From IMG/VR virus record IMGVR_UViG_3300022561_000002: a DNA stretch of 61,570 nt; one strand, written 5' to 3'. The notes beneath the pieces were generated by a model, which was given only the letters and a program-made list of their open reading frames with translations, was not told where the DNA came from and searched no databases. The position numbers and the translations under genes are program-made. Of this stretch, positions 2,181 to 51,620 are shown piece by piece (within the stretch, counting starts at the first letter, position 1; every line of letters begins with the position of its first letter). The DNA comes from a virus (Duplodnaviria > Heunggongvirae > Uroviricota > Caudoviricetes).

Positions 2181-2608
2181 TTTTCTATATCCCACTTCCT
2201 ATCGATTTCATTCCAATAATCTTCATTCTCTTTCGCACATTTATTAACTGAATAACATTCCTGTTCACATTTTAAATATCTACTTGATGTATTACTATTA
2301 AAAGGACAACCTCTTTTTCTCCAGCAGGCTTGTTTTGTCCCTACTTTATTATCATTATCTTTTCTCATTAAATCAACCATCTCTTCTAAAACGCAAAGAG
2401 TCATTGTCCTTGATTGTATTAAATAACAAACACGAGCATTACCACTTATATTACAATTAGTGCAACCAAAATCTTTGGCAGACATTTTAATTTGGCATTT
2501 CATAAGTTTTTGTAAATGTTCTAACGTTGTAATCCCTAGTGTGCCGTTAGGCTCACCACTAGCCTCAGCTAGTTCTTCGTGGGTGAGGTTTAATATATCA
2601 TCAATCAT
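2177..2608 (-). CDS. Cys-rich hypothetical protein
   Basis: ORF track; coupled to the carbamoyltransferase stop; several Cys clusters. Confidence 0.7.
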   Translation of the reverse strand: MIDDILNLTHEELAEASGEPNGTLGITTLEHLQKLMKCQIKMSAKDFGCTNCNISGNARVCYLIQSRTMTLCVLEEMVDLMRKDNDNKVGTKQACWRKRGCPFNSNTSSRYLKCEQECYSVNKCAKENEDYWNEIDRKWDIEK

Positions 2609-4292: not shown

Positions 4293-4293
4293 T

Positions 4294-4581
4294 TTATAAT
4301 ATCTCCTTTTTTGTTTTATCTTGTTCTTTTCTATAAGCAATTCGTTCATTAATAACTTCTTCTGTATATATATACTCATTATCAAGAGACGATATACCTT
4401 CAATTGTCTTATGTCTTCTTATTTTATTATTTTTAGTTCTTATTCTTTCGTGTAAATAATAATCAAATGAATCTTGATATTTATAAAACATGCGGCCAGC
4501 CCTAAAACCACTTTCAGCTTCTACATAAAAGGTATCAGTACCGTATTCATATTCATATGTAATTATGTATATTTTCTTCAT
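4294..4581 (-). CDS. Hypothetical protein
   Basis: AAGGAG RBS; first gene of the leftward unit. Confidence 0.75.
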   Translation of the reverse strand: MKKIYIITYEYEYGTDTFYVEAESGFRAGRMFYKYQDSFDYYLHERIRTKNNKIRRHKTIEGISSLDNEYIYTEEVINERIAYRKEQDKTKKEIL

Positions 4582-8825: not shown

Positions 8826-9853
8826 AAATAAAATTGCCTTAACACACCTTTTCCCTTTACTAAGGGGGTTAGCGAAAGCTAGCTAACGGGGAAATCTTAT
8901 TAGGTAAAGCTAAAGACAATCCCGTGGGAAGATTTGGACAAATTCTATTTATGATATTTATACAATTTTGAATATTAAATGAAGGTTAAAGTAATATTCA
9001 AAGGAGGTTAAATAATATGATTGGAATATATTGTTTCACAAATAAAATTAATAATAAAAAATATATTGGACAATCAATTAATATTGAAAAAAGATTTTTA
9101 GAACATTTTAATAATTCAAAAAATCCAAATGCTCATGGATATGATTCAAAATTTTATAGAGCCCTTAGAAAATATGGTGTCGATAGTTTTGAATTTGATA
9201 TTCTTGAAGAAGTTTCATTAGATCAACTAAACGAAAAAGAAACTTTTTATATAGGATATTATAACAGTTATAAAAATGGCTACAATAGTACATCGGATGC
9301 AAATAATGTAACCCAAAATGGTGAAGATCACCCAATGGCAAAAATTAGTGCTAATGATCTTTTAGAAATTAAATTATTGTTAAAAAATACTAATAAACTA
9401 CAATCAGAAATAGCCTTAATGTTTAATATAACTCAAAGTGAAATTTCTAATATTAACACAGGAAAAAGATGGGCTAATATTGGAAGCTATAAATACCCTA
9501 TTAGAGCTAATATTAAAAGAATTGGCGAAAATAGCAATAGAGCTATAATGACTGATGATGAAGTTTTGGAAATACGTAAAAGATATGTAACAGAAATCGG
9601 TAAACAAATATATGAAGATTATAAAGATAAATGTTCATATACAACCTTTGAAAGAATTTTAAGAGGAGTTACTTATCAAAACGTACCAATATATTATAAA
9701 ATAAAGAAACAGTGGTCTGAATAACCTGTATCGACTATTCGCTTAATAGCGAAGTACAATTACTATTAGTACGTAGTTGGAAAAGGGTGTGCAAATAACA
9801 TTTGGTTATTTGTAAGAGATAGTCAGTACTAGTAGAAATACTAGATAGATATG
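8826..9853 (+). mobile_element. Group I intron (IA-like) in terL
   Basis: 5' exon ends in U pairing with GCCUU (P1, U-G); terminal G 9853; P10 UAAAAUU/AAUUUUA; P3 8844-8854/9779-9790; P7 GACTAT 9733/ATAGTC 9819; P9 GAAA tetraloop. Splicing restores MEEV-ILIDGQRLNEV in frame. Confidence 0.92.
9017..9724 (+). CDS. Intron-encoded GIY-YIG homing endonuclease
   Basis: GIYCFTNKINNKKYIGQS...R..EH; C-terminal HTH-like motifs; own AAGGAGG RBS. Confidence 0.92.
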   Translation: MIGIYCFTNKINNKKYIGQSINIEKRFLEHFNNSKNPNAHGYDSKFYRALRKYGVDSFEFDILEEVSLDQLNEKETFYIGYYNSYKNGYNSTSDANNVTQNGEDHPMAKISANDLLEIKLLLKNTNKLQSEIALMFNITQSEISNINTGKRWANIGSYKYPIRANIKRIGENSNRAIMTDDEVLEIRKRYVTEIGKQIYEDYKDKCSYTTFERILRGVTYQNVPIYYKIKKQWSE

Positions 9854-11045
9854 AATTTTAATTGATGGTCAAAGATTGAATGAAGTAATTCTACCTCTAA
9901 TGAACGTTTCAAGACGAACAAAAAGTGGGAGAGTAGACGATAAAGAAAGTTTAAATAAATCGCAGATTTATGTAACAACCGCAGGTTATAAAGGTAGTTT
10001 TGCTTATGATAAGTTACTACAATTACTTATATGGCAGATTGTTAAACCTCAAGATTCTTTTGTTTTCGGTGGAAGCTGGCGTATACCAGTTGCACATAAA
10101 TTACTTGATAGAACTTTCGTAAAAGACCTTAAGATGGATGGTACGTTCAATGAAAATTCATTTTCACGAGAGTACGAGTCTGAATGGTCTGGTAGTGTGG
10201 AAGACGCATTCTTTGCGCCAGAGTCGTTTGATAAACATCGTTTACTTAAACAGCCTGAATATGAATATAGTGGGAAAACAACTGCGAAAAGTTATTATAT
10301 ATTATCAGTAGACGTTGGCCGTATTGGTTGTCAATCGGTAGTAATGGTAATAAAGGTAGTTCCTCAAGTAAAAGGATTAGCATTTAAAAATCTTGTTAAT
10401 ATTTATACTTTTGATGAAGAACATTTTGGTGTTCAAGCTTTAAAAATCAAGAGATTATATTATAAATATAACCCAAGAGCAATAGTAATAGATGGTAATG
10501 GTCTAGGAATAGGCCTTATTGATTATATGGTAACACAATCTGTGGACGAAAGTACTAAAGAATCATATGTACCTTTTGGAATAATTAATGACACAGATAA
10601 TTTATATAAAAAATATATTACACCTGATACCGAGAAGGAAGTTATATACGTCGTCAAAGCAAACTCAGAGATTAATACTGAGGCGCATACGAATCTACTA
10701 AGTCAAATATCCTCCGGCAAGGTGAGGTTTTTAATCGATGAACGTGCAGCCAAGGCTAAGTTCCTAGCAACAAAAATAGGAATATCAGCTTCTGCAATTC
10801 AAAGAGCTAATTACTTAAAACCTTTTACTCTAACTTCGATTTTGAGAGAAGAAATGTTAAACCTTAAAGAACAACGTGAAGGCAAACATTTAATATTAGA
10901 ATCAGTTAATAGAAAGATTAAACGAGATAAATTCTCGGCTTTTGAGTATGGTTTATATTATATTAAAATATTAGAAGATAATAGTAATAAGAAAAAACGA
11001 GGAAATATTGGTGATTTTGTGTTCTACTCACCATCGAAAGGATAA
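9854..11045 (+). CDS. terL: Terminase large subunit, exon 2 (nuclease)
   Basis: YVTTAG, REYESEW, LSVDVGR, IVIDGNGLG, DKFSAFEYG. Confidence 0.88.
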
Positions 11046-11049
11046 TGAG

Positions 11050-11412
11050 ATGGCATCAAGAGGAGAATTAAAGATAGAAGATATTTTAAAAATGAACCAC
11101 ATAAAATTTGATAAAGAATATATATTTACAAAATTAATTAGTTCAAGTGGGAGACCTTTGCGGTTTGACTTTGTAATTTTTGATGATGATAATAATATTG
11201 ATTTTTTAATAGAGTATCAAGGAGAGCAGCACTATACTAGTGTGGCTCACTTTGGTGGTCCATCACATTTACAAAAACAAAAATTTAATGACAGTAAAAA
11301 ACAACAATTTTGTATGCAAAATAATTATCCGCTTGTCACAATCCCTTTTTGGGATTACGAAAAATTAGATTACGATTATATCTTTAATCGAGCCGATGAA
11401 TTAAGAATTTAA
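11050..11412 (+). CDS. Small PD-(D/E)XK/Vsr-like endonuclease
   Basis: LRFDFVI...IEYQGEQHY...NDSKK; start moved to MASRG. Confidence 0.75.
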   Translation: MASRGELKIEDILKMNHIKFDKEYIFTKLISSSGRPLRFDFVIFDDDNNIDFLIEYQGEQHYTSVAHFGGPSHLQKQKFNDSKKQQFCMQNNYPLVTIPFWDYEKLDYDYIFNRADELRI

Positions 11413-33144: not shown

Positions 33145-36036
33145 ATGGGTTTAGAAACTAAAGACGCAAAAGTTTTAATTGATGTCATCAAAGACATTAT
33201 TAAACAAGAAAAGAAAAACGATTCAAAGAATTTAGAATATTCATATTTTGGAATTATTGAATCTATGAACCCAGATGGGACTTTTAATGTTAAAATACCT
33301 ACGGATGATAGTATTTATCCAAATTTATTAAACCAGACAGGTACTGCATTATTAATTGGTGATAGTGTAATCGTACAAGCAAGAAATAATAATATGGGTA
33401 ATGCATATATTTCGTCTAAAAGTGGGGCAACTATAGATGGAGTTGATTCATCGGGATATACAGGTTCTCAAGGTACAATTGGTTATACAGGTTCTATAGG
33501 TTATACAGGTTCTGTTGGTTATGTAGGCTCAAGAGGTTATACCGGTAGCCAAGGAGTTGGATATACAGGTTCAGCTTCTACTGTTATTGGATTTACGGGT
33601 TCGGTTGGATATGTTGGTTCTAGAGGCTACGATGGTAGTCAGGGATATACAGGTTCCGTTGGATATGTGGGTTCTGCATCGACTGTCGTTGGATATACAG
33701 GATCTAAAGGTGACATTGGTTATGTAGGTTCAGCAAGTACGATTATAGGATACACTGGAAGTCAAGGTGGACAAGGAAATATAGGCTATAGTGGTTCTAA
33801 GGGAGATATAGGTTATAGTGGCTCTCAAGGAATAATAGGCTTTACGGGATCTCAAGGGATTATAGGACTTACGGGATCTCAAGGAATTATAGGACTTACG
33901 GGTTTTACGGGTTCAAGAGGATATAGTGGTTCTGTAGGTTTTACGGGCTCTTTTGGTTTTACAGGTTCTATTGGCTACGTTGGTAGTCAAGGAATTATAG
34001 GATATACAGGTAGCCAGGGCATTATAGGTTATACAGGTTCTTTTGGGTACACAGGTTCTTTCGGATATACAGGCTCATTTGGTTTTACGGGATCTTTCGG
34101 TCTAACTGGTTCAAGAGGATACACTGGTTCATTCGGGTTTACAGGTTCTGTTGGATTTGTTGGCTCTCAAGGTATAATTGGTTTAACAGGCTCTCAGGGC
34201 GGACAAGGAATAATTGGTTTTACGGGCTCTAAAGGAGATATAGGTTATGTAGGAAGTGCTTCTACAATAATTGGCTTTACGGGTTCTCAAGGAATCATAG
34301 GATTAACTGGAAGTAGGGGTTACACTGGCTCTTTTGGTTACACTGGCTCTAAAGGGGATATAGGATACGTTGGATCTGCAAGTACAATAATTGGATATAC
34401 AGGTTCTTTTGGATATACAGGTTCTTTTGGATATACAGGTTCTTTTGGATATACAGGTAGTGCCTCAACAATAATTGGATATACTGGTTCAAAAGGTGAC
34501 ATAGGATTTACAGGTTCTAAAGGCGATATCGGACTTACAGGTAGTCAAGGCTATACAGGAAGTACTGGACCAATCGGATACGTAGGCTCAGCTTCAACCG
34601 TTATAGGTTATAGCGGTTCCAAAGGAGATATAGGTTTCACAGGTTCAGCATCAACTATTGTCGGTTATACGGGTTCAGTAGGATTTATAGGCTCAAGAGG
34701 GTATACGGGTTCTGCAAGTACTGTTGTTGGATATACAGGAAGTCAAGGTGTTGGTTACACAGGTTCCGCTTCAACTATAATCGGGTATACTGGTAGCAAA
34801 GGAACTGATGGAGTTATTGGTTACAATGGAAGTGTCGGTTATACGGGTTCTGCTTCAATTGTAATTGGCTACACAGGTAGTCAAGGCATTCAAGGCGTTG
34901 GATATACTGGAAGTGCCTCTACAGTGATAGGATATACAGGCTCTAGAGGAGCGACTGGCTATACTGGCTCTGCTTCAACTGTTATAGGATATACTGGAAG
35001 TCAAGGGGTCGGGTATACAGGAAGTGCATCTACAATCATTGGATATACAGGATCAAGAGGATACAATGGATCTATGGGATACAATGGATCCAATGGTTAT
35101 ACAGGTTCAGCATCTACAATTCCAGGTTTTACAGGTTCACGAGGTATAATAGGATACACAGGGTCTTCCGCAGGTGGAGATTTTACTGATGTTGCATTCC
35201 TACAAAGAACAAATACTGAGATAGTCGCCGCACTGCCAAATATTGATGCGGACTTATTTTTAGGTCATGGATTAGATTACTTTGGAACGGCGCAGAATAT
35301 AATAGACATTAATGCTAAATTTGTTATTAATGATTTTACTTTTGCTGACTTTAAAGACTTTTCAATACCAGCAGGTGAATATACTGTAAACTCTAGTACA
35401 AAATTAAATCCTCCATATGCGGGAGTGGTGACTGGTAGGATTTCGGTTAAGAGATACGCTGATTTAATGTGGTTAGAATTAAGACCAAAAGATAGTACAT
35501 ATTCATATTCATTAAGTTATTCTACTGCAACGGGTTGGATTGGATGGTTTAATTCAAGTCATTCTTTAACTTCTAATAACGCTGATTTAATTGATAATAT
35601 CGACTCTGCTAGACTTGTTTATGGGACAAATGGAACTGGTAGCAACACAATGTCAGTTATTCAAAATGTTTATGAAGAGCCACAACGTAAGTCTGGTTTT
35701 TGGGAGTGTACTGGAGCTTCGTGGACACCAGATACAGGATGGTGGTGGGGCATAACAATAGCACATACCAGTAACTCATCTATTTATAATTACTCAGGAC
35801 AATTTGCTTTTAAAAATGGTGGTGGAGGAACAGAAGTTTATGCAAGAACAATAGGGGGAGGTACTCCGACTGAGTGGTCGAAATTATTAACTACTTCTGG
35901 TGGTACTATGACGGGTATTTTAACCGCACAAAATAATACTTCATATACAACAAAACAAGTTAGAAATATAATTATTTCAACAACAGATGCGGTACTCGCT
36001 AGTATGGCTAATGGAGATATTTGGATAAAAGTTTAA
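33145..36036 (+). CDS. Tail spike/fibre: OB-fold-like N-terminus, GYTGS collagen-like repeats, C-terminal fibre domain
   Basis: GIIESMNPDGTFNV...GDSVIV; Gly-X-Y run aa 104-674; NADLID, GGTMTG, GDIWIKV. Confidence 0.8.
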   Translation: MGLETKDAKVLIDVIKDIIKQEKKNDSKNLEYSYFGIIESMNPDGTFNVKIPTDDSIYPNLLNQTGTALLIGDSVIVQARNNNMGNAYISSKSGATIDGVDSSGYTGSQGTIGYTGSIGYTGSVGYVGSRGYTGSQGVGYTGSASTVIGFTGSVGYVGSRGYDGSQGYTGSVGYVGSASTVVGYTGSKGDIGYVGSASTIIGYTGSQGGQGNIGYSGSKGDIGYSGSQGIIGFTGSQGIIGLTGSQGIIGLTGFTGSRGYSGSVGFTGSFGFTGSIGYVGSQGIIGYTGSQGIIGYTGSFGYTGSFGYTGSFGFTGSFGLTGSRGYTGSFGFTGSVGFVGSQGIIGLTGSQGGQGIIGFTGSKGDIGYVGSASTIIGFTGSQGIIGLTGSRGYTGSFGYTGSKGDIGYVGSASTIIGYTGSFGYTGSFGYTGSFGYTGSASTIIGYTGSKGDIGFTGSKGDIGLTGSQGYTGSTGPIGYVGSASTVIGYSGSKGDIGFTGSASTIVGYTGSVGFIGSRGYTGSASTVVGYTGSQGVGYTGSASTIIGYTGSKGTDGVIGYNGSVGYTGSASIVIGYTGSQGIQGVGYTGSASTVIGYTGSRGATGYTGSASTVIGYTGSQGVGYTGSASTIIGYTGSRGYNGSMGYNGSNGYTGSASTIPGFTGSRGIIGYTGSSAGGDFTDVAFLQRTNTEIVAALPNIDADLFLGHGLDYFGTAQNIIDINAKFVINDFTFADFKDFSIPAGEYTVNSSTKLNPPYAGVVTGRISVKRYADLMWLELRPKDSTYSYSLSYSTATGWIGWFNSSHSLTSNNADLIDNIDSARLVYGTNGTGSNTMSVIQNVYEEPQRKSGFWECTGASWTPDTGWWWGITIAHTSNSSIYNYSGQFAFKNGGGGTEVYARTIGGGTPTEWSKLLTTSGGTMTGILTAQNNTSYTTKQVRNIIISTTDAVLASMANGDIWIKV
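33454..35166 (+). repeat. Collagen-like G-(Y/F)-T-G-S repeat array (about 570 aa)
   Basis: Gly every third residue with GSASTxxG interruptions. Confidence 0.9.
34393..34458 (+). repeat. Perfect 18-nt tandem repeat
   Basis: GGATATACAGGTTCTTTT x3 plus a 12-nt partial copy. Confidence 0.9.
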
Positions 36037-36106: not shown

Positions 36107-36154
36107 ATTAAAAGATAGAGAACAAACAAATTGCACAGATTAAAAGGAGGTTTT

Positions 36155-38830
36155 ATGAAAAAGATAAAAATAGCTTTTCTTGATATTGTTGGTTTAAGAT
36201 ACAATGGGCACACCCTTAATAAAAGAGGATTAGGTGGCTCTGAATCTTCAACTATATATATGGCAAAAGAATTAAATGACTTAGGTTTTGATGTTACTGT
36301 TTTTTGCAAAATAGAAGGAGATGAACAAAGTTATGATGGTGTAAATTATATTTCAAATGAAAAGTGTAAAGATAATACTGAAAAATTTGATATATTAGTT
36401 ACATTGCGTTCTTGCGTTCCGTATATACCAATACAATATAGAGAAGATGTATATAGAGAAACTGGATATGATATTGAAAATACTATTGGATTAGTTAAAA
36501 ATAGTGGCTATAAAGTTTTATGGTTACATGATACATTTTGCTCAGGAGATAATTGGCTTGAGCACATATGCATAGACGGATATTTTGATGAAATCTTTAC
36601 ATTATCAGATTGGCACAGTAATTATATTATGAATGGTCATACTTGGAGAGGTAGAATCTTCGAAGTATTAAAAAATAAAATTTGGCAAACAAGAGATGGA
36701 ATAAGAAGCTACATAGATGAAGTTGATATATCTAAAAAAGACAAAGATTTATTTGTATACAATGCGTCAGTATCAAAAGGCATGACACCACTATTAGAGC
36801 AGTGTTGGGGTAAAATAAGAGAACAAATACCAACAGCAAAATTAATGGTTATAGGTGGTTATTATAGAGGTGCAAATCATGATAATCCTGATGAACAAGA
36901 GTTACAGTGGATGAAATTAAAAGAAAATTATGATGGAAAAGATGGAGTTCATTTTACAGGTATAATTTCACAAAGAGAGATTGCTGAAATATTAAGTAAG
37001 GCTTCATTAATGGTTTATCCAGCTTTATTTCCCGAAACATTTGGGATTTCTACATTAGAGTCTTTAAATTATAATACACCATTGGTGACGTGTCGCTTTG
37101 GCGCATTGGAAGAAACAGCAATTGAAAAAGCTTGTTATTTAATTAATTATGATATTAACTATAATGAACAACAAATTGATAGATTTGTAGAAATGGTTTT
37201 AAAAGCATATAATGATGATTATTTAAGAAAGCAAAAAATGTATGCATGTAATGAAACAAAAGAAATAAATACATGGGATACGATTGCTTTACAGTGGAAG
37301 CAGCATTTTTATAATAAATTAGACTTATATATGCCATTTAATGAATTAACAAAAGTAAGAAGGGTTAATTCAGAAGCTCAAAGAATATTTAAAAGAAGAT
37401 TTTTAAACAAAGAGGATATAATTGAAAGTAGTACTGTAAACAATAAATTCATTATAATAACACCTGTATATAATGCAGAAAATTATATAAAAAAATGTAT
37501 TGACAGTGTGGCAAATCAGGTATATAATAAATATAAGATGATTATTATAGACGATATGTCTACTGATAATACAGTTAATATAATAAAAGAAACCATAGAA
37601 AATTATCCACCAAATATTAAAAATAAATTTCAGTTAGTAATTAATACTGAGAAAAAATATGCAGTTAGTAATCAAGTTGATGCAATTAACTTATATGAAA
37701 ATGATTCTAGTATTATAGTTCTATTAGATGGAGATGATTGGTTAGTAAATGATAATGGAGTATTTAATTACTTAGATAATCTTTATATTGATGGATGCGA
37801 TATGTCTTACGGTAGTTGTCATTCTTTAGTTGATAACATAGATTTAATATCAGAACCTTATCCTAAGAATGTAATTGAAGAAAAATCTTTTAGAACACAT
37901 TTATTTACTTGGGGTATGCCTTATACACATTTAAGAACTTTTAAAAAAGAATTATTTAATAAAATAGATAAGTCTTTATTTAGAGATGAAAATGGAGAGC
38001 ATTGGAAAGCTGGTGGAGATAATGCTTTATTTTATCCACTGTTAGAAAATGCAAACAATATAAAATGCATTCAAAGAGTTTTAATGATTTATAATGATAT
38101 TAATCCACTAAATGACTATAAAATTAATGGGGAAGAACAAACTAAAACTGCAAATAAAATAAGAGATAAAAAATATGATATTACAGATATGAATGAGTTA
38201 AAAGATATTTATAATGAAGTTTTAGATAGAAATGATAATGCTATAAAATTATTGAAAGATACTCTTGTTAATAGAAAAGATACTTGGATTGATAATACAG
38301 ATGCACCTAATATAATAGATAGAAAAAATTGGCTTAAAGATAAATTTGAGGAATTAAATATATCTAAAGAAAGTGTTATATTAGATATAGGTTCTTGGAC
38401 TGGTGGGTTTATTAATGAATTTTATAAAATGGGATATAAGGATATATCCTGTGTCGAAATTAGTAAAGAAGCATATAAATTAGGAAGTCAAACATATCCA
38501 AGTTGGCACTGGATGAACGGAGATATAGAAGATTTTGTTTTACCACCTATTAAATATGATGTAGTGGTAATGTTTGAAGTCATAGAACATTTAGTAAATC
38601 CAATAGAAGCTATAAATAAAATAAAATTATCTTTAAGTGATAATGGTAAAATATTTTTTAGTATTCCAAAAGAAGATTCTATGAACGCTGATGGTATGGC
38701 TTATGAACATATATCGTATATAACCAAAAAACAACTTGATGAATTAGATGCTAAGGTTGAAGATTTATCATCTAAAGCAACACATTTTAATTGGTATATG
38801 GGATATATAGAAAATAAAAAAAAAGGATAG
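36155..38830 (+). CDS. GT4 + GT2 glycosyltransferase + SAM methyltransferase fusion
   Basis: GLGGSE and PETFGISTLE (GT-B); ITPVYN...IIDDMSTD...DGDD (GT-A); ILDIGSWTG...FEVIEH (class I MTase). AAGGAGG before MKKIK. Confidence 0.9.
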   Translation: MKKIKIAFLDIVGLRYNGHTLNKRGLGGSESSTIYMAKELNDLGFDVTVFCKIEGDEQSYDGVNYISNEKCKDNTEKFDILVTLRSCVPYIPIQYREDVYRETGYDIENTIGLVKNSGYKVLWLHDTFCSGDNWLEHICIDGYFDEIFTLSDWHSNYIMNGHTWRGRIFEVLKNKIWQTRDGIRSYIDEVDISKKDKDLFVYNASVSKGMTPLLEQCWGKIREQIPTAKLMVIGGYYRGANHDNPDEQELQWMKLKENYDGKDGVHFTGIISQREIAEILSKASLMVYPALFPETFGISTLESLNYNTPLVTCRFGALEETAIEKACYLINYDINYNEQQIDRFVEMVLKAYNDDYLRKQKMYACNETKEINTWDTIALQWKQHFYNKLDLYMPFNELTKVRRVNSEAQRIFKRRFLNKEDIIESSTVNNKFIIITPVYNAENYIKKCIDSVANQVYNKYKMIIIDDMSTDNTVNIIKETIENYPPNIKNKFQLVINTEKKYAVSNQVDAINLYENDSSIIVLLDGDDWLVNDNGVFNYLDNLYIDGCDMSYGSCHSLVDNIDLISEPYPKNVIEEKSFRTHLFTWGMPYTHLRTFKKELFNKIDKSLFRDENGEHWKAGGDNALFYPLLENANNIKCIQRVLMIYNDINPLNDYKINGEEQTKTANKIRDKKYDITDMNELKDIYNEVLDRNDNAIKLLKDTLVNRKDTWIDNTDAPNIIDRKNWLKDKFEELNISKESVILDIGSWTGGFINEFYKMGYKDISCVEISKEAYKLGSQTYPSWHWMNGDIEDFVLPPIKYDVVVMFEVIEHLVNPIEAINKIKLSLSDNGKIFFSIPKEDSMNADGMAYEHISYITKKQLDELDAKVEDLSSKATHFNWYMGYIENKKKG

Positions 38831-38831
38831 T

Positions 38832-39446
38832 GTGGAAATGATGAATGATATAAAGAAGAAAATTTTAATTGCAATACCTACTGCTAAAAATATCGAAACG
38901 GATACCTTCAAATCAATTTATAATTTATATAAGCCTGAAAATACTGAATTGCATTTTGAATGTTTTTATGGTTATAATATAGATCAAGTAAGAAATTTAA
39001 TGGCAAGTTATACCATTAATAATAATTTTGATTACATTTTCTGTGTAGATTCGGATATAGTTTTACCTAAAGATTCTTTGATAAAATTATTATCACACAA
39101 TAAAGATATTATAAGTGGTGTATATAGACAAAGATTTTTAGAGGAAAATATGCCAGAGTTGTACTTAAATGAAAATGGTAGAATTTTTAGAGCTACAATT
39201 GAAGACATTAAAGAAGATAAAATCATGGAAGTGAGTAGTTGCGGCTTTGGATGTACATTAATATCTAAAAGTTTATTATATAGAATAGGATATCCACAAT
39301 TTGAATATCATTCTTCTATTGATTTTAATAAAACAATTTCAGAAGATACAGATTTCTGTATCAAAGCAAATAAATGTGGAACTAAAGTATATGTTGACAC
39401 AAGTATTAAATGTGGACATATAGGAAGTTTTGAATTAAAAATTTAA
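38832..39446 (+). CDS. GT-A (GT2-like) glycosyltransferase
   Basis: IAIPT, RN, VDSD, GFGCTLI, SEDTDFC, CGHIG. Confidence 0.85.
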   Translation: MEMMNDIKKKILIAIPTAKNIETDTFKSIYNLYKPENTELHFECFYGYNIDQVRNLMASYTINNNFDYIFCVDSDIVLPKDSLIKLLSHNKDIISGVYRQRFLEENMPELYLNENGRIFRATIEDIKEDKIMEVSSCGFGCTLISKSLLYRIGYPQFEYHSSIDFNKTISEDTDFCIKANKCGTKVYVDTSIKCGHIGSFELKI

Positions 39447-39463: not shown

Positions 39464-40090
39464 TTGGCTATAACACTTCCTTACTCGACGGCAAATGTGC
39501 AATTTGGTACTGACACATATGTTTATGGTTGGTCAACTTCTGTTGGTTCATATTCTAACTCAAGTGTTATGACATCTAGTGGATATACTCGTATAAATTC
39601 TATAACAAGAAATCCGGATGGCACAAGAACTGTTAATGTAACTGTTTATTATTTAATGGCGATATCAAGAAGTGGATCCGATTCTGGAGTTTATACTTTC
39701 CAATCAACTCCAAATGTAAGATTTTATAATTCTGTATTGGCATCGTATATAACTATATATAACGCGGCTTTAACAACTACATGTGCAACTGGTGCATCGG
39801 CAAGTATAACACATTCATCAACAGTGAATATTTCAGTTCCTGCAACATGGTTCGCAACATCAACAGCAACCTGGAATTTTAGTACCACGCAAGAATGTAA
39901 AGTTGTAACAAGCGGAGCAGTATATACTCATACCAAAATAGATGCGGCGTTTATTATTGAAACTTTAAGAAGTATAGTTGTTAATGTAGATGGCGTATTA
40001 AAAACTGCATCAGCAGTATGGGCTAGAACAAATGATACGTTAAATCCACTCATAGATATGAAGATAGATGTTGATGGGGTATTGAAATGA
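39464..40090 (+). CDS. Ser/Thr-rich virion-like protein
   Basis: TTG after AAGGAG; beta-rich; C-terminal VNVDGVLK...VW motif reminiscent of fibre tips. Confidence 0.55.
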   Translation: MAITLPYSTANVQFGTDTYVYGWSTSVGSYSNSSVMTSSGYTRINSITRNPDGTRTVNVTVYYLMAISRSGSDSGVYTFQSTPNVRFYNSVLASYITIYNAALTTTCATGASASITHSSTVNISVPATWFATSTATWNFSTTQECKVVTSGAVYTHTKIDAAFIIETLRSIVVNVDGVLKTASAVWARTNDTLNPLIDMKIDVDGVLK

Positions 40091-41124
40091 GTATGATATA
40101 TGTATTTTATAACAAATATACTTTGGAAATTCTTACGGTATTAAGACCATTTATAAATAATATTGACATAAATGAATTTATTGAAAGTAGACTTATATAT
40201 GATGATAAATTTAAAAATTTAACATATAGTGATATAGATTATATAATAGAGGATACAGAAGAGTATGATTTTTTTAATGATAATCCATCTATATATAAGT
40301 GTATGTATATTGATAATAAAAAACGCAAATTAAAATTTAAATTAACAAAAAATGAAAATGTATTTATTAATACAACATATAATATACAAAAATATAAAAG
40401 AGATTATACAAATGTAGAAATTAATGAAATGTATGAAGAAGATTATATAAATTTTAATCTTAAAAACATTATGATATCAGATAATGATATTGAATTTTCT
40501 TTTGAGTATTTAAAAGATTTAAATATTAGGACTAAGATGGTTAATAAAAGATGGAAAAGTTTTCATAATGATCCATATTTAACTGAATCTTCTCAAGATA
40601 AAACCATGCTAGGAAAATCTATAGCAAAAATAGGAACATATTATCCTATATTAGTTGAACCCCAAAAGTCTGAAAATGGATTATATGCTTTAGAGGGCTC
40701 TCATAGAATAACCTCTTTAAAGCTTCTTCAAATGGAAGGTGGCATTCCAGAAGATTTTAAAATATTTTGTATTCATATGCCATATTCTTATCAAGATATA
40801 GAAACACCGAAAATGTTTACTGTATTAAAAAATCCAATATTAATCAGAAGAATAATCGAAGTTTATTACGGATCTGAAATACTAAATGATTCTATTTTAT
40901 ATGAAAAGGCATTATCTTCAATCAAAGAAGACGGAGATAAAATCATTAATAAATATACTTATGAAACATACATATATACGTTAGAAGAGCTATTGTCTGC
41001 TGTTGACTCATATCCACATTGGTTGAGAGATTTAATCCATATAGATGGTAGTATATTTCCTAGTGAAATAATTAATAAAGAATTAAAATTTAAGGAGTGG
41101 GTAAACGAATGTTATCACATATAA
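40087..41124 (+). CDS. ParB/Srx-fold protein, paralogue 1
   Basis: SIAKIGTYYPILV...LEGSHRITSL. Confidence 0.7.
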   Translation: MSMIYVFYNKYTLEILTVLRPFINNIDINEFIESRLIYDDKFKNLTYSDIDYIIEDTEEYDFFNDNPSIYKCMYIDNKKRKLKFKLTKNENVFINTTYNIQKYKRDYTNVEINEMYEEDYINFNLKNIMISDNDIEFSFEYLKDLNIRTKMVNKRWKSFHNDPYLTESSQDKTMLGKSIAKIGTYYPILVEPQKSENGLYALEGSHRITSLKLLQMEGGIPEDFKIFCIHMPYSYQDIETPKMFTVLKNPILIRRIIEVYYGSEILNDSILYEKALSSIKEDGDKIINKYTYETYIYTLEELLSAVDSYPHWLRDLIHIDGSIFPSEIINKELKFKEWVNECYHI

Positions 41125-42029
41125 GAAGAGTAGACATAGAGTTTCATTCATTTTGTAATAGAAGATGTATATGGTGTCCTAATACAGACTTTATAAGAGA
41201 TGATGAAGATATTGAAATGAGTGATGAACTTTATTCAAAAATCATAAATGAATTAAAAGATAATAATTTTGGAAAGTATCCTAGATTTCCTTTATCAGAA
41301 AATCGATCTCCAAAAGATAGTCCTAATTATTCAAAATTTATTATCAATCAGCCAGTTTTATCCTTTCTTGGTTATCAAGAACCATTATCAAATATACCAT
41401 TATTAAAGAAAAGAGTGCAAGAGGCTTGGGAAAAATTACCGCCTCATATAGAACTTGTTTCTAATACAAATGGAGATTATCTTACAGAAAAATCATTAGA
41501 CGGTTTGTTACTTACTACTTTAAATATTAAAGATTACGATTCTAAAGGTATGGAGTATTGGAAAGAAAGATTAAAAAAACTTGGCGTATTAATAATAGAT
41601 ATAGATGAAAATATAGAGCAAATTATAGGTGTCCATAAAAATGTAGGAAATGTAACTTGTTATTGTAATTGGCCTAAGCATATTGACCTAGAAGATAGAG
41701 GTGGATTTTTGAAAAAAGAAGATATCCCTGATATAAAATGGCGAAATAATGCGAAAGAACGAACTGAAATTTGTTTAGAACCAAGCTATTATATCAACAT
41801 TCATTACAATGGAGATATTATGCCGTGTTGTCATTTAAGAATGGATAATCCTATGCATAAAGAATTCATTCTAGGTAATGTAAATAATAATACTTTAGTA
41901 GAAATACATAATAATGAAAAAGCTAATAATTTGAAAGAAATACTTTCGATAGAAGATGGTAATTTCCCTTCAACTTGTTTAAATTGTCAAAAAATTAGGC
42001 AAGAGGGGTTAAACAGGTTTCCCTCATGA
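41109..42029 (+). CDS. Radical SAM/SPASM(twitch) protein 1
   Basis: CNRRCIWC; NTNG; CLEP...GDIMPCC...GN...CLNC. Confidence 0.9.
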   Translation: MLSHIRRVDIEFHSFCNRRCIWCPNTDFIRDDEDIEMSDELYSKIINELKDNNFGKYPRFPLSENRSPKDSPNYSKFIINQPVLSFLGYQEPLSNIPLLKKRVQEAWEKLPPHIELVSNTNGDYLTEKSLDGLLLTTLNIKDYDSKGMEYWKERLKKLGVLIIDIDENIEQIIGVHKNVGNVTCYCNWPKHIDLEDRGGFLKKEDIPDIKWRNNAKERTEICLEPSYYINIHYNGDIMPCCHLRMDNPMHKEFILGNVNNNTLVEIHNNEKANNLKEILSIEDGNFPSTCLNCQKIRQEGLNRFPS

Positions 42030-47486: not shown

Positions 47487-47515
47487 TTGACTAATACTTA
47501 AATATATGATATAAT
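47487..47515 (+). promoter_or_regulatory. Internal sigmaA promoter
   Basis: TTGACT-17 nt-TATAAT with TG extension. Confidence 0.85.
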
Positions 47516-47553: not shown

Positions 47554-48369
47554 ATGATAAACAATTTAAGATTAGTTGAAATAGAGCTTTTTTCATATTG
47601 CAATAGACAATGCGGATGGTGCCCTAATAATACCATAGATAGACTTTCGTTTAATAAGTTTATTGATACAAAAGTTTTATTACATCTTTTAAAAGAATTA
47701 AAAGAAAATAATTATGATGGAGCAATAACCTTTTCTAGATATAATGAACCTATGTCGCACATAAAACAATTTAAAGATTTTTTATATGAAATAAAAAATG
47801 AACTTCCTAATAATAAACTAATAACAAATACAAACGGGGATTTTATTTCTAAAGAAAATTTAATGGGCTTAATGTTAGATGAATTAACCATAATGGACTA
47901 TGATGGATTAGGAATAGATGGTTGTATAGAGGTATTAAATAAAGCAAATGTAATTATTGATGATGTGAAATATCCTTATATATATGGACATTTTGACTCT
48001 ATAGAAATATTATATTTTGTTGATTGGCAAAAAAATAGAAAGATTACTGATAGAGGTGGTTTTCTAAAAAGCTATTCGCAAATATTACGAGATAAGCCGT
48101 GTTTTGAACCAAATTATTTTGTAGGTATTAATTACGATGGAACTGTATCTCCTTGTTGTAATATAAGAAATGATATAGAACAACATAAACCATATATAAT
48201 TGGAGACCTAAATAATAACTCTTTCTCAGAAGTATTATCAAGTTATAAATCTAATTTAATAAAAAAAATATGTAATAACGGGAGTTTTATAAAAGATTCC
48301 CCATGTTATATGTGTGAAAATAGTGGCGGAAGATATACAAGAGGGAATGGGGGCATATCATATGAATAA
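47554..48369 (+). CDS. Radical SAM/SPASM(twitch) protein 2
   Basis: CNRQCGWC; NTNG; CFEP...GTVSPCC...GD...CYMC. Confidence 0.9.
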   Translation: MINNLRLVEIELFSYCNRQCGWCPNNTIDRLSFNKFIDTKVLLHLLKELKENNYDGAITFSRYNEPMSHIKQFKDFLYEIKNELPNNKLITNTNGDFISKENLMGLMLDELTIMDYDGLGIDGCIEVLNKANVIIDDVKYPYIYGHFDSIEILYFVDWQKNRKITDRGGFLKSYSQILRDKPCFEPNYFVGINYDGTVSPCCNIRNDIEQHKPYIIGDLNNNSFSEVLSSYKSNLIKKICNNGSFIKDSPCYMCENSGGRYTRGNGGISYE

Positions 48370-49015
48370 AAAAGTAGGGATATACATTCCCGCAAGGTTA
48401 AACAGTGAAAGACTTCCAAATAAACAAATACTACCAATAGGAGATACTTGTTTATTTGATATTGCATGTAAGAAATTGAACGAACTGCCAACGTATATTA
48501 ATAAGTATGCTTTAATTTATGAAAAAGAATTAATAGATATAGCAAGTAAGTATCCTAATATAAATATAATTCAAAGAAGCGAAGAGACCGCGAAAGCAGA
48601 AACTCCTCTTAATTATATTTTTCAAGATATGAAATACGTAGAGGATACTCATTTAATGTTCTTGAACCCTTGTCTTTTGTTTTTAACGAAAGAAACTATA
48701 TTAAAAGCATTAGATGAATTTATAAATTCTGATAACGATTATGCTACAAGTGTAAAACCATTTCATAATTGGATTTTAGATGAAAGAGGATTATGTCTGA
48801 ATGATATTAATTATAAAGAGTTAACAACTAAAAAAATCGAAGGATTATATCAATTTGCTCATTGTTTCCATATCTTTAATAAAGAAAACTTTTTTAAAGA
48901 CGGATATATGTTAAAATCAATGTTTTTGCCATTAGTTATTGCGGATGAAGAGACTATTGATGTTGATACTTTAGAAGAGTATAAATATGCGAGGTGGAAA
49001 TATGAAAATATATGA
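48362..49015 (+). CDS. neuA: CMP-nonulosonate synthetase-like cytidylyltransferase
   Basis: IPARLNSERLPNK; DVDTLEEY. Confidence 0.82.
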   Translation: MNKKVGIYIPARLNSERLPNKQILPIGDTCLFDIACKKLNELPTYINKYALIYEKELIDIASKYPNINIIQRSEETAKAETPLNYIFQDMKYVEDTHLMFLNPCLLFLTKETILKALDEFINSDNDYATSVKPFHNWILDERGLCLNDINYKELTTKKIEGLYQFAHCFHIFNKENFFKDGYMLKSMFLPLVIADEETIDVDTLEEYKYARWKYENI

Positions 49016-49310
49016 GGTTGATTTAGATGGAACTCTATGTACAAATACGTATGGAAATTATGAGAATGCTCAACCCATCCTCGAGAACATCGAAAAAATT
49101 AATAACCTGTATAGAAATGGTAACATTATTAATATTAATACTGGTCGTGGTAGCACCACTAGTATTGATTGGTATAATTTAACAGAGAAACAATTAAAAT
49201 TATGGGAAATAAAATACCACACTTTAACAGTTGGTAAAAAACCCTATTATGATTATATTATAGATGATAAAGCAATAAATGAGTGCGAGGAGGATTGGGA
49301 ATGTTTATAG
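49002..49310 (+). CDS. Minimal HAD phosphatase (EcbF/BcbF-like)
   Basis: DLDGTLC, TGR, KP, IIDDKA. Confidence 0.82.
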   Translation: MKIYEVDLDGTLCTNTYGNYENAQPILENIEKINNLYRNGNIININTGRGSTTSIDWYNLTEKQLKLWEIKYHTLTVGKKPYYDYIIDDKAINECEEDWECL

Positions 49311-50119
49311 CAGAAATTGGAATAAACCATGGCGGAGATATAAATATAGCTAAAGAATTAATTCTTATGGCTAAGAGGTCTGGCGCAAATGTAGTTAAAT
49401 TTCAGAAACGAAATGTAGAAGAAAATATATTACCACAAGACTTAAATACAACAAGAGAAACCTTAAAGGGAACTCGATCTTATTTAGATTATAAAACAGA
49501 TTTAGAATTTGAAATCTATGCTTATAGAGAGATAGATAAATTCTGTAAGTCTATTAATATGCCATGGACTGTTAGTGTTTGGGATATTACAAGTGTAGAG
49601 TTTATTTCACAATTTGATATCCCTTTTATTAAAGTTCCAAGTGCAAGAATTAATGAATTAGATTTATTAGAAGCTATTAACTCTACTGGTATTCCTGTGG
49701 TATTAAGTACTGGAATGAGTTCAAAAGAAGAAGTCGATAGTGCTATAAATGCTCTTGATAATCTTTCTTGTATAATGCACTGTGAAAGTATATACCCTCC
49801 AAAAGATAATGAATTAAATTTGAATATAATATCTTATTTAAAGGATTGTTATCCCAATATTAAAATTGGATATAGTAGTCATGATACATCAATTTATCCT
49901 ATGTTATGCGCGAGTACTCTAGGGGCAGAAATATTTGAAGCACATATAACATTAAATAAAAATATGATTGGTTCAGATCAAAAATGTAGCTTTGAAGAGA
50001 AGGAGTTAACCGAAATGATTTCTTTAATCAATAAAAGCAAACTATGGTTGGGGAATAAAGAAATTACTTGTTTAGAATCAGAAGAGCCTGCCAAGAAGAA
50101 ACTAAGACGAAAGTCTTAA
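49301..50119 (+). CDS. neuB: N-acetylneuraminate synthase family, lacking the C-terminal SAF domain
   Basis: IAEIGINHGG, VKFQKR, LSTGM, HCESIYP, GYSSHD, EAHITL, GSDQ. Confidence 0.9.
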   Translation: MFIAEIGINHGGDINIAKELILMAKRSGANVVKFQKRNVEENILPQDLNTTRETLKGTRSYLDYKTDLEFEIYAYREIDKFCKSINMPWTVSVWDITSVEFISQFDIPFIKVPSARINELDLLEAINSTGIPVVLSTGMSSKEEVDSAINALDNLSCIMHCESIYPPKDNELNLNIISYLKDCYPNIKIGYSSHDTSIYPMLCASTLGAEIFEAHITLNKNMIGSDQKCSFEEKELTEMISLINKSKLWLGNKEITCLESEEPAKKKLRRKS

Positions 50120-50165: not shown

Positions 50166-50411
50166 ATGGCAGTAATAGATACGTTAATAGATGGCAATGA
50201 TGTTGAGCAATATCCGAAAACAGTTACCGCTGCTATTTACGACAAGGACACAAATGAACGATTAGATAATAAATTGGCTAAAACTGTAGAGAATACTATA
50301 GTAGGTCAGAATTTAAAAGTATGGTATGGCACTAGAGTAGAGTATAATGCGATTATAACAAAAGATGTTAGTACGTTATATTTTATTAAAGATGTTATAG
50401 ATCCATTATAA
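50166..50411 (+). CDS. Small tail-fibre-associated protein
   Basis: YPKT and WYGTRVEYNAIITKDVSTLYFI motifs common in fibre proteins. Confidence 0.6.
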   Translation: MAVIDTLIDGNDVEQYPKTVTAAIYDKDTNERLDNKLAKTVENTIVGQNLKVWYGTRVEYNAIITKDVSTLYFIKDVIDPL

Positions 50412-50423
50412 AGGAGGAGTAAT

Positions 50424-51620
50424 ATGGCAGATTTAATTGCTAATGGAGAGGTTGCGAGTTCCATTAGAGCAAAAATAAACGCAATGAAAGTACAAGTTGA
50501 TGGAAAGGCAGATTTATCAAACGGAATAGTCCCTGCACATCAATTACCATCAGATACAAGAACTGATTCATATTTAACTTTTTGTGGAAATGCTAATGTA
50601 AATATGCTAGATGCAGCTTTTGGTAAAAATAATGAAGATAGGATAACGGGGATAGGTAGACAATTAGCGATGTATGCTTGGTTTAAAGGTTCAAACAAAC
50701 AATTTCATACACTTACTGAGCTTATACAATGTAATACTTTTGCTGAAATATTATCAAATAACGCTCCTTTATACGAAGCTTTTGGTAATCCCTATATTTA
50801 TGATCTTATTCAAGTTTCGCCTTATGCAAGTGCTTTATTTCCATTATATACGGCTTTAATTACATCTGGTACTTTGGCAACATTAAAACAAAGTACCGCT
50901 ATGGATACTATAACAACACATACAGTAATGGTGGATTATATAAGAAATAATCTCACATTGAGAGGTATATTAGCAACAAATTTAGGTTCAATTGTTAATG
51001 GAGGCGATACAACTTATACAGTTCCAGCTGGTGTAAATTATCTTACATTAGAAGCTGTTGGAACTGGTTCTAGTAATGCTGGCAAGCATATGTTTAAAGT
51101 TATTAAAGTAACTCCAGGAGAACAAATTATTGCACACACTGGCAGACAGGATGATCCTATTCCCGCTACAAAATTTGGAAGTTATTTAGAGATAACTGAA
51201 GTAGGAGGTTATGCTTCAACACAAACAGGTTCTTTCTTAGCACTTGCTGGCAATGGAGCGGGTGGAAACTCTGGTGTTGGTACCGCATATGGTGGTTATG
51301 GTGGAGGTGCTGGAGGAGTAGCTAATGGTAATGCCACTGGTTCGATCGCTGGTGGTATAGCAGCTTCAGCAACCAATGGAATAATTCTACCTGTTGGTAC
51401 AAATTCTGGAGGTAGAGGAAGACCAGGAGAATGGGCTGGAACTACCATTTACGGAGGAAATGCTCCAAATGGTGGTGGCGGTGCAGGAAATGGTTGCGGA
51501 TATGGTGGTAGAGTTGGTAATGGTGGTGGTGGCGGCTATGGTGGAGCTGGAGGAAGCGCCAATACATCTGGATCTGCAACTGGAGAAGGTGGAGCTGGAT
51601 GTATCGCTATTTATAGTTAA
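50424..51620 (+). CDS. Glycine-rich tail-associated protein (paralogue of 29146-30630)
   Basis: SYLTFCGNANVN; GGxGG-rich C-terminus ending GCIAIYS. Confidence 0.65.
   Translation: MADLIANGEVASSIRAKINAMKVQVDGKADLSNGIVPAHQLPSDTRTDSYLTFCGNANVNMLDAAFGKNNEDRITGIGRQLAMYAWFKGSNKQFHTLTELIQCNTFAEILSNNAPLYEAFGNPYIYDLIQVSPYASALFPLYTALITSGTLATLKQSTAMDTITTHTVMVDYIRNNLTLRGILATNLGSIVNGGDTTYTVPAGVNYLTLEAVGTGSSNAGKHMFKVIKVTPGEQIIAHTGRQDDPIPATKFGSYLEITEVGGYASTQTGSFLALAGNGAGGNSGVGTAYGGYGGGAGGVANGNATGSIAGGIAASATNGIILPVGTNSGGRGRPGEWAGTTIYGGNAPNGGGGAGNGCGYGGRVGNGGGGGYGGAGGSANTSGSATGEGGAGCIAIYS

Follow-up and report, generated by a model that had tools for sequence, protein, structure and literature searches.

A four-gene unit between phage tail-fiber genes is predicted to make a CMP-activated sialic-acid-like sugar

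The phosphorylated pathway to Kdn (3-deoxy-D-glycero-D-galacto-nonulosonic acid) is described for Bacteroides thetaiotaomicron (BT1713-BT1715) and Prymnesium parvum (PMC6200933), and a Kdn-based teichulosonic acid is the main wall polymer of Streptomyces (PMC11481543). On the phage side, glycosylated mycobacteriophage virions that rely on host nucleotide sugars appear among the work cited in PMC12801897, and the prophage enzymes EpaA and EpaB remodel host-made pseudaminic acid (PMC12053666). Here we analyze a 61,570-nucleotide stretch of DNA from a large, SPbeta-like tailed phage (Caudoviricetes; IMG/VR record IMGVR_UViG_3300022561_000002), hereafter the window, in which NeuA-like, haloacid dehalogenase (HAD) and NeuB-like genes form a trio at 48362-50119. 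We find it likely that this trio, together with an upstream radical S-adenosylmethionine (SAM) gene, encodes a phage pathway to a cytidine monophosphate (CMP)-activated, nine-carbon 3-deoxy-2-ulosonic (sialic-acid-like) acid by way of a phosphorylated intermediate. A limited literature search on phages with a nonulosonic or sialic acid synthase returned no paper describing such a cassette, which does not prove that none exists.

The three genes are intact, lie on the + strand and overlap at exactly the coordinates at which the initial annotation had placed them as one unit. The transcription and translation unit is four genes, one longer than stated there, because neuA shares 8 nt with a translationally coupled upstream gene, which encodes a BtrN-like radical SAM enzyme. 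In order, the unit encodes this enzyme (rSAM2; 47554..48369, 271 amino acids (aa)), a divergent, NeuA-like CMP-ulosonic acid synthetase (48362..49015, 217 aa), a minimal HAD phosphatase (mini-HAD; 49002..49310, 102 aa) and a NeuB-family phosphoenolpyruvate (PEP)-condensing synthase without a SAF domain (49301..50119, 272 aa), with overlaps of 14 nt between NeuA and HAD and of 10 nt between HAD and NeuB. The order is not a chance arrangement and recurs in related phages and prophages. The enzymes of the trio look active, in that the catalytic and metal-binding residues of NeuB, HAD motifs I-IV and the cytidine triphosphate (CTP) and Mg motifs of NeuA are all kept; PHROGs holds no family for the NeuA, NeuB or rSAM2 of the window. 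Ahead of the unit lies a promoter-like site (47487..47515, + strand) composed of TTGACT, a 17-nt spacer and TG-TATAAT, with 11 of 12 matches and an extended -10 TG, which is only suggestive because such sites in the surrounding AT-rich region total no more than in shuffled sequence.

From the observed gene integrity, conserved residues, family assignments, synteny and co-occurrence, we infer the substrate, step order, radical SAM reaction and acceptor as follows. The NANS-like, SAF-less NeuB would condense PEP with a host hexose 6-phosphate, mannose 6-phosphate (Man-6-P) being the likeliest; the mini-HAD would take off the terminal phosphate, and the divergent NeuA would join the free acid to CMP. 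The BtrN-like oxidoreductase probably oxidizes or epimerizes one sugar hydroxyl, giving a product that would be Kdn-like and probably not plain Kdn. Glycosyltransferases of the surrounding cassette would most likely use the activated sugar in the cytoplasm, with the phage's own tail fiber as the favored acceptor.

The synthase matches PF03102 over residues 20-253 (202.1 bits, cut-off 22.1) and is, as first described, short and devoid of a SAF domain: none is matched, and the protein ends at residue 272, leaving no room for one. This is not unusual, as SAF-less NeuBs of 270-290 aa are abundant, with thousands of relatives found (7,888 matches in a database search), and approximately 30% of known nonulosonic acid synthases lack the domain (PMC8208679). 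Residues E5, K33, Q35, H194, E213 and H215 are invariant in 28 sequences and correspond to E25, K53, Q55, H215, E234 and H236 of Neisseria meningitidis NeuB, in a register that aligns query residues 2-265 with residues 22-286 of the 1xuu chain. The N. meningitidis enzyme has a catalytic Glu, a PEP-binding Lys and Gln, and two metal-binding His. The predicted structure (predicted local distance difference test score 94.8) finds human and mouse NANS, the N-acetylneuraminic acid (Neu5Ac) 9-phosphate synthases, as its best Swiss-Prot fold match (TM score 0.93, root-mean-square deviation 1.8, 35% identity), followed by LegI (34%), bacterial NeuB (25%), PseI (24%) and KdsA (11-16% identity). NANS uses a phosphorylated substrate. 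Against the equivalog models for the bacterial Neu5Ac synthase NeuB/NnaB (TIGR03569; 208 bits, cut-off 399.65) and the pseudaminic acid synthase PseI (TIGR03586; 150.5 bits, cut-off 340.25), the window protein remains below threshold.

NeuA belongs to PF02348 (36.2 bits, cut-off 22.6) and scores 44 bits with the PseF model, far below the cut-off of that model. The CTP-binding R/S/K motif (R12, S15, K21), R17 and the Mg-binding D-x-D (D200, D202) are invariant. A profile built from 27 viral NeuA sequences returns its best PDB matches at 50-53 bits, namely 9t4z (the P. parvum CMP-Kdn synthetase), 6ifd and 1qwj, compared with only ≈27 bits for KdsB chains; the best KdsB subfamily model gives the window protein 26.3 bits against a cut-off of 193. 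The difference between CMP-sialate synthetases and KdsB supports a nine-carbon over an eight-carbon sugar as the probable substrate; among nine-carbon sugars these profile scores do not discriminate.

The mini-HAD begins MKIYEVDLDGT, carries the DxDxT motif and matches phrog_1238 with 84 bits. HAD motifs I-IV (D7, D9, T11; T47; K80; D84/D89) are conserved at 95-100% in 43 viral homologues. A profile search of the PDB retrieves 9iqw, a "capsule biosynthesis protein" (E = 5e-21) for which we found no relevant literature, and 1xpj (E = 4e-12). The nearest named group is EcbF/BcbF (TIGR01689), at 25.8 bits and short of its cut-off of 162, and the KdsC/YrbI-type models, TIGR01670 and NF058599, which cover Kdn 9-phosphate (Kdn-9-P) phosphatases of the BT1713 type, give no match at E ≤ 0.01.

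This NeuB type is encoded by at least 584 IMG/VR contigs, compared with 3 of 50,697 deposited phage records. At least three metagenome sources have yielded contigs (up to 126,789 bp) with a NeuB identical to that of the window, and a DNA search with 47.5-51.7 kb of the window against deposited phages gave no match. We counted co-occurrence in the 80 best viral loci plus L001, a 142-kb phage-like contig (NeuB 72% identical to that of the window), and L002, a locus in a 3.6-Mb bacterial genome (54% identical), 82 loci in all. NeuA is found near NeuB in 57-72 of them, the mini-HAD in 46, a radical SAM homologue in 21-22 (rSAM2 upstream of NeuA in 21) and a cupin of about 105 aa in 18. Other frequent neighbors are GT4 and GT2 transferases, a GDP-mannose dehydratase and a short-chain dehydrogenase/reductase (SDR); NeuC, aminotransferases and the dehydratases of pseudaminic (Pse) or legionaminic (Leg) acid synthesis are not among the frequent neighbors in these viral loci. 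The closest relatives share the order rSAM, NeuA, HAD, cupin, NeuB within tail-fiber or baseplate regions. In L002 (L002:1-20822), this series stands between two contractile-tail gene sets, with baseplate J and Mu Gp48 before it and sheath, tube and tape measure after it. The NeuB tree groups the viral sequences in one supported clade, and the window falls within a 24-row subclade (support 97).

Bacterial NeuBs of the same type, 41-45% identical to that of the phage, come from Chloroflexota, Streptomyces, Ignavibacteriota, the candidate phyla radiation and others; all bacterial counts refer to 80 loci (L083-L162). The mini-HAD is present in only 1 of these 80 cellular loci. A NeuA-HAD fusion accompanies the SAF-less NeuB in 50, lying directly upstream in 39 (examples are L087:7754-10822 and L146:8293-10867). 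In the L087 fusion, the one scanned, the HAD domain scores 110 bits with TIGR01670 (KdsC/YrbI; cut-off 106.95) and 93 bits with the Kdn-9-P phosphatase model NF058599. Because bacteria with the same NeuB type use this NeuA-fused, KdsC-type HAD instead, the phage mini-HAD appears to be a non-orthologous replacement at the same pathway position. Streptomyces loci run in the order polysialyltransferase-like protein, DUF6716, NeuA-HAD, NeuB, the layout of the SCO4879-4881 operon (PMC3479208). In 46 of the 80 loci, a gluconate-5-dehydrogenase/KduD-like SDR gene is encoded upstream of NeuB on the same strand, and in 30 its distance from NeuB is 1.8-3.2 kb, as would be expected if it immediately precedes NeuA-HAD. 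One Chloroflexota locus (L087:3070-13437) encodes a PGI/PMI-type SIS isomerase, a fused ATP sulfurylase/adenosine 5'-phosphosulfate kinase, the SDR, NeuA-KdsC, NeuB, a sulfotransferase and a KpsS/KpsC-like transferase, a content that suggests a sulfated ulosonate polymer.

The cupin of the related phages bears on the precursor. Ten viral loci of the 24-member NeuB clade of the window carry it (L001, L002, L005, L008, L009-L011, L014, L019 and L021), and the phosphomannose isomerase (PMI) domain of GMP/PMI (TIGR01479, positions about 356-448) gives the best family match for each of the four tested; the L002 cupin, the one searched against the PDB, best matches 7zvm, a 113-aa mannose-6-phosphate isomerase (E = 2e-9). 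One 233-aa open reading frame (ORF), L008:9294-9995, encodes a fusion in which the mini-HAD occupies residues 28-116 and the PMI-like cupin residues 131-228. Such a cupin would complete a route from fructose 6-phosphate through Man-6-P to the ulosonate. In the window, tblastn for the cupin gave chance hits only, and the gene is missing by a clean, precise one-gene deletion: aligned DNA of the window and L001 is nearly identical through the HAD gene up to GAGGAGGATTGGGAATG, after which the cupin starts in L001 and NeuB starts in the window. The ribosome-binding site and ATG of the lost cupin now serve NeuB (window 49290-49310 compared with L001:9680-10005). Because only some members of the clade carry it, the cupin is dispensable, which fits what would be expected if a host PMI supplies Man-6-P; the clean loss is likewise in keeping with the earlier proposal that the pathway draws on a host sugar-phosphate.

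Gene overlap, co-occurrence and the HAD-cupin fusion in L008 all link the phosphatase to the pathway. The initial annotation had read synthase, HAD and CMP-transferase as a 9-phosphate route, and this is still the best reading, given NANS as the top reviewed match, the frequency of the mini-HAD in viral loci, the bacterial NeuA-KdsC fusions and the PMI-like cupin of sister phages. On these several independent comparative lines, we regard a 9-phosphate route as a well supported prediction.

The gene that the initial annotation omitted suggests, through its coupling to NeuA and its likeness to BtrN, that the sugar is modified. rSAM2 is matched by Pfam SPASM (37.6 bits), Fer4_12 and Radical_SAM, as expected of a radical SAM/SPASM-twitch enzyme, and carries the motif CNRQCGWC (CX3CX2C). 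Its only significant PDB match is BtrN (55.6 bits, E = 5e-14, residues 6-257), and in its radical SAM core, C-terminal auxiliary Fe-S domain, compact size and sequence similarity it is BtrN-like. BtrN itself dehydrogenates a secondary alcohol of an aminocyclitol by radical SAM chemistry. Evidence for modification comes from the overlap of rSAM2 with NeuA and from its defining a NeuB subclade, with a radical SAM gene in 19 of the 24 rows that include the window; in bacteria, the KduD-like SDR upstream of NeuB points the same way. We ranked a peptide-modifying role, in the biosynthesis of ribosomally synthesized and post-translationally modified peptides, lower, as BtrN is the sole solved relative and an N-terminal recognition domain is absent.

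Several observations weigh against the pathway as proposed. The first concerns the sugar recognized by NeuA. Arg196 of P. parvum NeuA (PpNeuA) is a gatekeeper for Kdn, and Kdn-only organisms, Streptomyces included, have Arg there, while Neu5Ac- and Pse-type enzymes place a hydrophobic residue against the C5 N-acetyl group (PMC12934254). We located this position by the published numbering, with a chain offset of 18 that was checked on R19, S22, V23, K28 and N29; Arg196 lies 17 residues before the E/D-x-D motif and, by profile alignment, corresponds to viral Met183, which is invariant in 27 of 27 viral NeuA sequences where Arg would be expected of a Kdn-specific enzyme. As a control, Streptomyces NeuA has Arg at the gatekeeper offset, and a joint alignment agrees. 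By this one published rule, the phage NeuA would not be of the Kdn-specific type. N102 and C104 further replace a canonical Gln and Thr, and together with the invariant Met183 they mean that the NeuA sugar is not readable from known rules. A second rule, which uses Lys16 to separate Neu5Ac- from Kdn-specific CMP-sialic acid synthetases, was dropped, as the enzymes of Streptomyces, a Kdn producer, carry that Lys in the alignment. Among the other enzymes, NANS leads LegI by just one percentage point of identity, the PMI reading of the cupin comes from weak scores (18-41 bits) and from phages other than that of the window, and the substrate of the HAD is assigned by position only, because the protein is not homologous at the subfamily level to Kdn-9-P or Neu5Ac-9-P phosphatases. 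No recognizable sialyltransferase family was found, and neither SAF-less NeuBs nor members of this mini-HAD family are known to have been characterized biochemically. The NeuB tree places the viral clade outside both bacterial types; assignment of the phage NeuB by phylogeny to the Kdn-type (Arg) or the SDR-type (Met/Leu) bacterial NeuBs was therefore abandoned. Finally, among the 50 fusion-bearing bacterial loci, the SDR is present in 0 of 14 with an Arg gatekeeper compared with 34 of 36 with Met or Leu, a link that rests on few independent lineages, with the Met/Leu group almost all Chloroflexota.

We take two leads from this last comparison. One is that the gatekeeper residue of NeuA may track an adjacent oxidoreductase. 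The other is that the phage order rSAM-NeuA-HAD-NeuB may correspond to the bacterial operon SDR-NeuA·HAD-NeuB, an oxygen-sensitive radical enzyme taking the place of an NAD-dependent one.

How far the product departs from Kdn is the main point on which the readings part. A plain CMP-Kdn pathway like that of B. thetaiotaomicron and P. parvum, from Man-6-P through Kdn-9-P and Kdn to CMP-Kdn, is a possible outcome that we do not favor; the radical SAM enzyme would then act elsewhere, for example on a glycan or a protein. Such a pathway would be in line with the PMI-like cupin of sister phages, with the origin of the Streptomyces relatives in Kdn-producing organisms (PMC11481543), with 9t4z as the best PDB match of the NeuA profile, and with many marine viral loci that hold NeuB, HAD and NeuA and no radical SAM gene at all. 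It also agrees with the lack of amino-sugar genes: the earlier claim that the window holds no NeuC or Pse/Leg precursor genes stands, as Epimerase_2 (NeuC), DegT aminotransferase and Polysacc_synt_2 dehydratase were found neither in Pfam and PHROG scans of 31.0-53.8 kb nor in the Pfam lists for ~1.4-22.9 kb and ~43.9-59.9 kb, the tail genes at 22.9-31.0 kb being only partly scanned. Plain Kdn is opposed by Met in place of the gatekeeper Arg that Streptomyces retains, by the lead of 9t4z over Neu5Ac-type enzymes of only ~1-3 bits, and by rSAM2, which is translationally coupled to NeuA and conserved with it. Of the initial comparison with Bacteroides Kdn synthesis, the three-step 9-phosphate logic survives, but the HAD is not of the KdsC/BT1713 family and the NeuA lacks the Arg. 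Because the HAD is of another subfamily and the Arg of Kdn-specific enzymes is replaced by Met in this NeuA, the product may be Kdn-like but modified, for example an oxidized or epimerized Kdn-type acid. Taken further, and offered here only tentatively, the phage could make an undescribed nonulosonic acid, with a Kdn-type backbone oxidized or epimerized by the radical SAM enzyme as a stand-in for the SDR, activated by a Met-gatekeeper NeuA and attached in the cytoplasm to the phage's own Ser/Thr-rich, collagen-like tail fiber; if so, the adhesin of this bacteriophage would bear an acidic glycan coat that the phage itself encodes.

The setting of the unit informs the choice of acceptor. The window is phage DNA, encoding a portal, a terminase-like ORF, a tape-measure protein and a DnaE-type polymerase, together with the SPbeta-type structural families YonG, YonD, YonB, YomU, YomV and YomW. 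The trio is the end of a 14-kb cassette inserted between tail-fiber genes. Upstream stands a collagen-repeat tail fiber (33145..36036, + strand; PF01391, 169 bits, and many tail-fiber PHROGs), a possible acceptor, and the cassette itself holds a GT4-GT2-methyltransferase fusion (36131-38830, + strand), a small GT-A protein (38832-39446, + strand), a second radical SAM enzyme, several unannotated proteins and the trio. The first two have Pfam and PHROG matches and are candidate transferases; in L001 their counterparts are joined as one 1100-aa protein. Directly downstream of the trio follow tail proteins (50166..51620, + strand), one of 81 aa with a Phage_tail_C tip domain (PF24243, 34 bits) and one of 398 aa, which place the cassette inside the fiber module; the same downstream order is found in L001 and L163-L165, and in the window XkdX, a holin and an Amidase_3-SPOR endolysin come after them. 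The cassette lies between tail-fiber genes in the window, L001, L002 and L014/L019/L021, which have differing tail types, and none of its proteins has a hydrophobic segment (highest 19-residue Kyte-Doolittle mean 1.44). With no export or lipid-carrier function, no membrane segment and a position between fiber genes, the cassette favors a cytoplasmic protein acceptor such as the collagen-like fiber, with the virion as the probable target. The initial annotation proposed that the product masks the virion or changes a receptor, and either may be the consequence.

The alternative, that the CMP-sugar is handed to host machinery in a lysogenic conversion that alters the wall or capsule, with receptor change or superinfection exclusion as the outcome, seems to us rather unlikely. 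In its favor, SPbeta-like phages are temperate, the unit has a promoter-like site of its own, and in bacterial relatives this NeuB type serves to make wall and capsule polymers. Prophage enzymes are also known to remodel host nonulosonate capsules (PMC12053666). Lysogenic conversion of this kind is at odds with a cassette that has no flippase, polymerase, lipid-carrier transferase or membrane segment, and that is embedded between tail-fiber genes in several unrelated tail types, so that decoration of the virion remains our preferred reading.

The remaining alternatives concern the pathway itself and fare less well. Synthesis of Neu5Ac by the animal-type route, from host N-acetylmannosamine (ManNAc) 6-phosphate made by the NanE of sialic acid catabolism and by way of Neu5Ac-9-P, is improbable: NANS is the best reviewed match of NeuB, Met183 is hydrophobic as in Neu5Ac- and Pse-type enzymes (PMC12934254), and the PMI-like cupin is absent from the window, but the enzyme of the sister cassettes is PMI-like and not ManNAc-related, none of the related loci surveyed has a NanE, NanK or GNE-like gene, and the NeuA lacks the canonical Q-x-T-S-P sugar-binding motif and has Glu or Gln at the Lys16 position. 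A bacterial-type, non-phosphorylated route, in which NeuB would use PEP and a free sugar and the HAD would serve, for example, nucleotide or sugar-1-phosphate metabolism, is likewise improbable, for although the HAD family is uncharacterized and resembles the phosphatase domain of polynucleotide kinase (phrog_415), and LegI is nearly as close to NeuB as NANS is, the HAD gene overlaps both neighbors, accompanies this NeuB type in more than half of the viral loci, is fused to the pathway cupin in L008, and has its counterpart in the KdsC-type ulosonate-phosphate phosphatase that bacteria join to the NeuA found next to this NeuB type.

Other features of the cassette and window complete the description. 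The second radical SAM/SPASM enzyme, rSAM1 (41097..42029, + strand, 310 aa), is a paralogue 32% identical to rSAM2, and it recurs as a pair with its partner gene u345, which encodes an unannotated 345-aa protein (40087-41124, + strand). The u345-rSAM1 pair lies upstream of the rSAM2-NeuA unit in about ten viral loci (the window, L001, L005, L008, L023, L026, L070 and L073 among them), and in the window six more unannotated genes are inserted between the pair and rSAM2. In marine viral loci, three families of Pfam-less proteins stand directly beside NeuB, of 259 aa (34 loci), 264 aa (17 loci) and 225 aa (16 loci), with examples at L048:10816-11595, L027:10834-11628 and L022:9278-9955; these are candidates for the missing transferase. 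Approximately 45 kb from the sugar cassette, at 2601-4403 on the - strand, the window encodes a NodU/CmcH-type carbamoyltransferase (phrog_1601, 393 bits; Pfam Carbam_trans_N and Carbam_trans_C), and a GIY-YIG endonuclease gene (9017-9724) immediately precedes the terminase-like ORFs (9876-11412) and the portal gene.

If the proposed pathway is correct, a complete and self-sufficient route to an activated sialic-acid-like sugar is common among tailed phages, and its place in this one within the tail-fiber module would point to a glycosylated adsorption apparatus, with possible effects on host range, stability and recognition. Two testable rules follow: that a SAF-less NeuB goes with an ulosonate-phosphate phosphatase, as a KdsC-type NeuA fusion in bacteria and a separate mini-HAD in phages, and that an adjacent oxidoreductase is lacking where the NeuA gatekeeper is Arg and present where it is Met or Leu. 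Enzymes this compact could, in addition, be of use in the chemoenzymatic synthesis of CMP-ulosonates.

Compared with known systems, the phage unit is closest in logic to the Kdn pathway of Bacteroides and Prymnesium, with which it shares a NeuB-family PEP synthase acting on a sugar 6-phosphate (a predicted substrate in the phage), a HAD phosphatase, a CMP-sialate synthetase and the lack of NeuC; the PMI-like enzyme of sister phages is a further likeness. It differs in that the Kdn phosphatase there is of the KdsC/YrbI type, whereas that of the phage belongs to a 102-aa, EcbF/BcbF-like HAD subfamily, and in having a NeuA without the gatekeeper Arg, a BtrN-like enzyme in the unit and a phage-borne location in a tail-fiber module. 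NANS (Q9NR45, Q99J77) is the best reviewed structural and sequence match of the phage barrel, 35% identical over 275 residues, but has a C-terminal antifreeze-like (SAF) domain that the phage NeuB lacks. With the Streptomyces SCO4879-4881-type teichulosonic acid (Kdn) locus and the Chloroflexota SDR-NeuA·KdsC-NeuB operons, the phage has in common the NeuB subtype, NeuA, an ulosonate-phosphate phosphatase (a predicted activity in the phage) and, as in many of these loci, an oxidoreductase just upstream of NeuA. In the bacteria, however, NeuA carries a fused KdsC-type domain and an NAD-dependent SDR is the oxidoreductase, while the phage has a separate HAD and a radical SAM enzyme at the position of the SDR, and both bacterial NeuB types are separate from the viral clade on the tree.

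rSAM2 shares with BtrN (2-deoxy-scyllo-inosamine dehydrogenase of butirosin synthesis; PDB 4m7s, 4m7t) a compact size, the CX3CX2C motif, a C-terminal auxiliary-cluster domain and the lack of a peptide-recognition extension; sequence similarity is low, and the substrate of BtrN is an aminocyclitol, whereas that of rSAM2 would be an ulosonic acid or a sugar phosphate. Among phages, the glycosylated mycobacteriophages and the prophage enzymes EpaA/EpaB offer precedents for the attachment of sugars to virions and the alteration of nonulosonic acids by phage-encoded functions. These mycobacteriophages use host nucleotide sugars and EpaA/EpaB modify a host-made sugar, whereas the phage described here itself encodes the predicted synthesis and activation steps.

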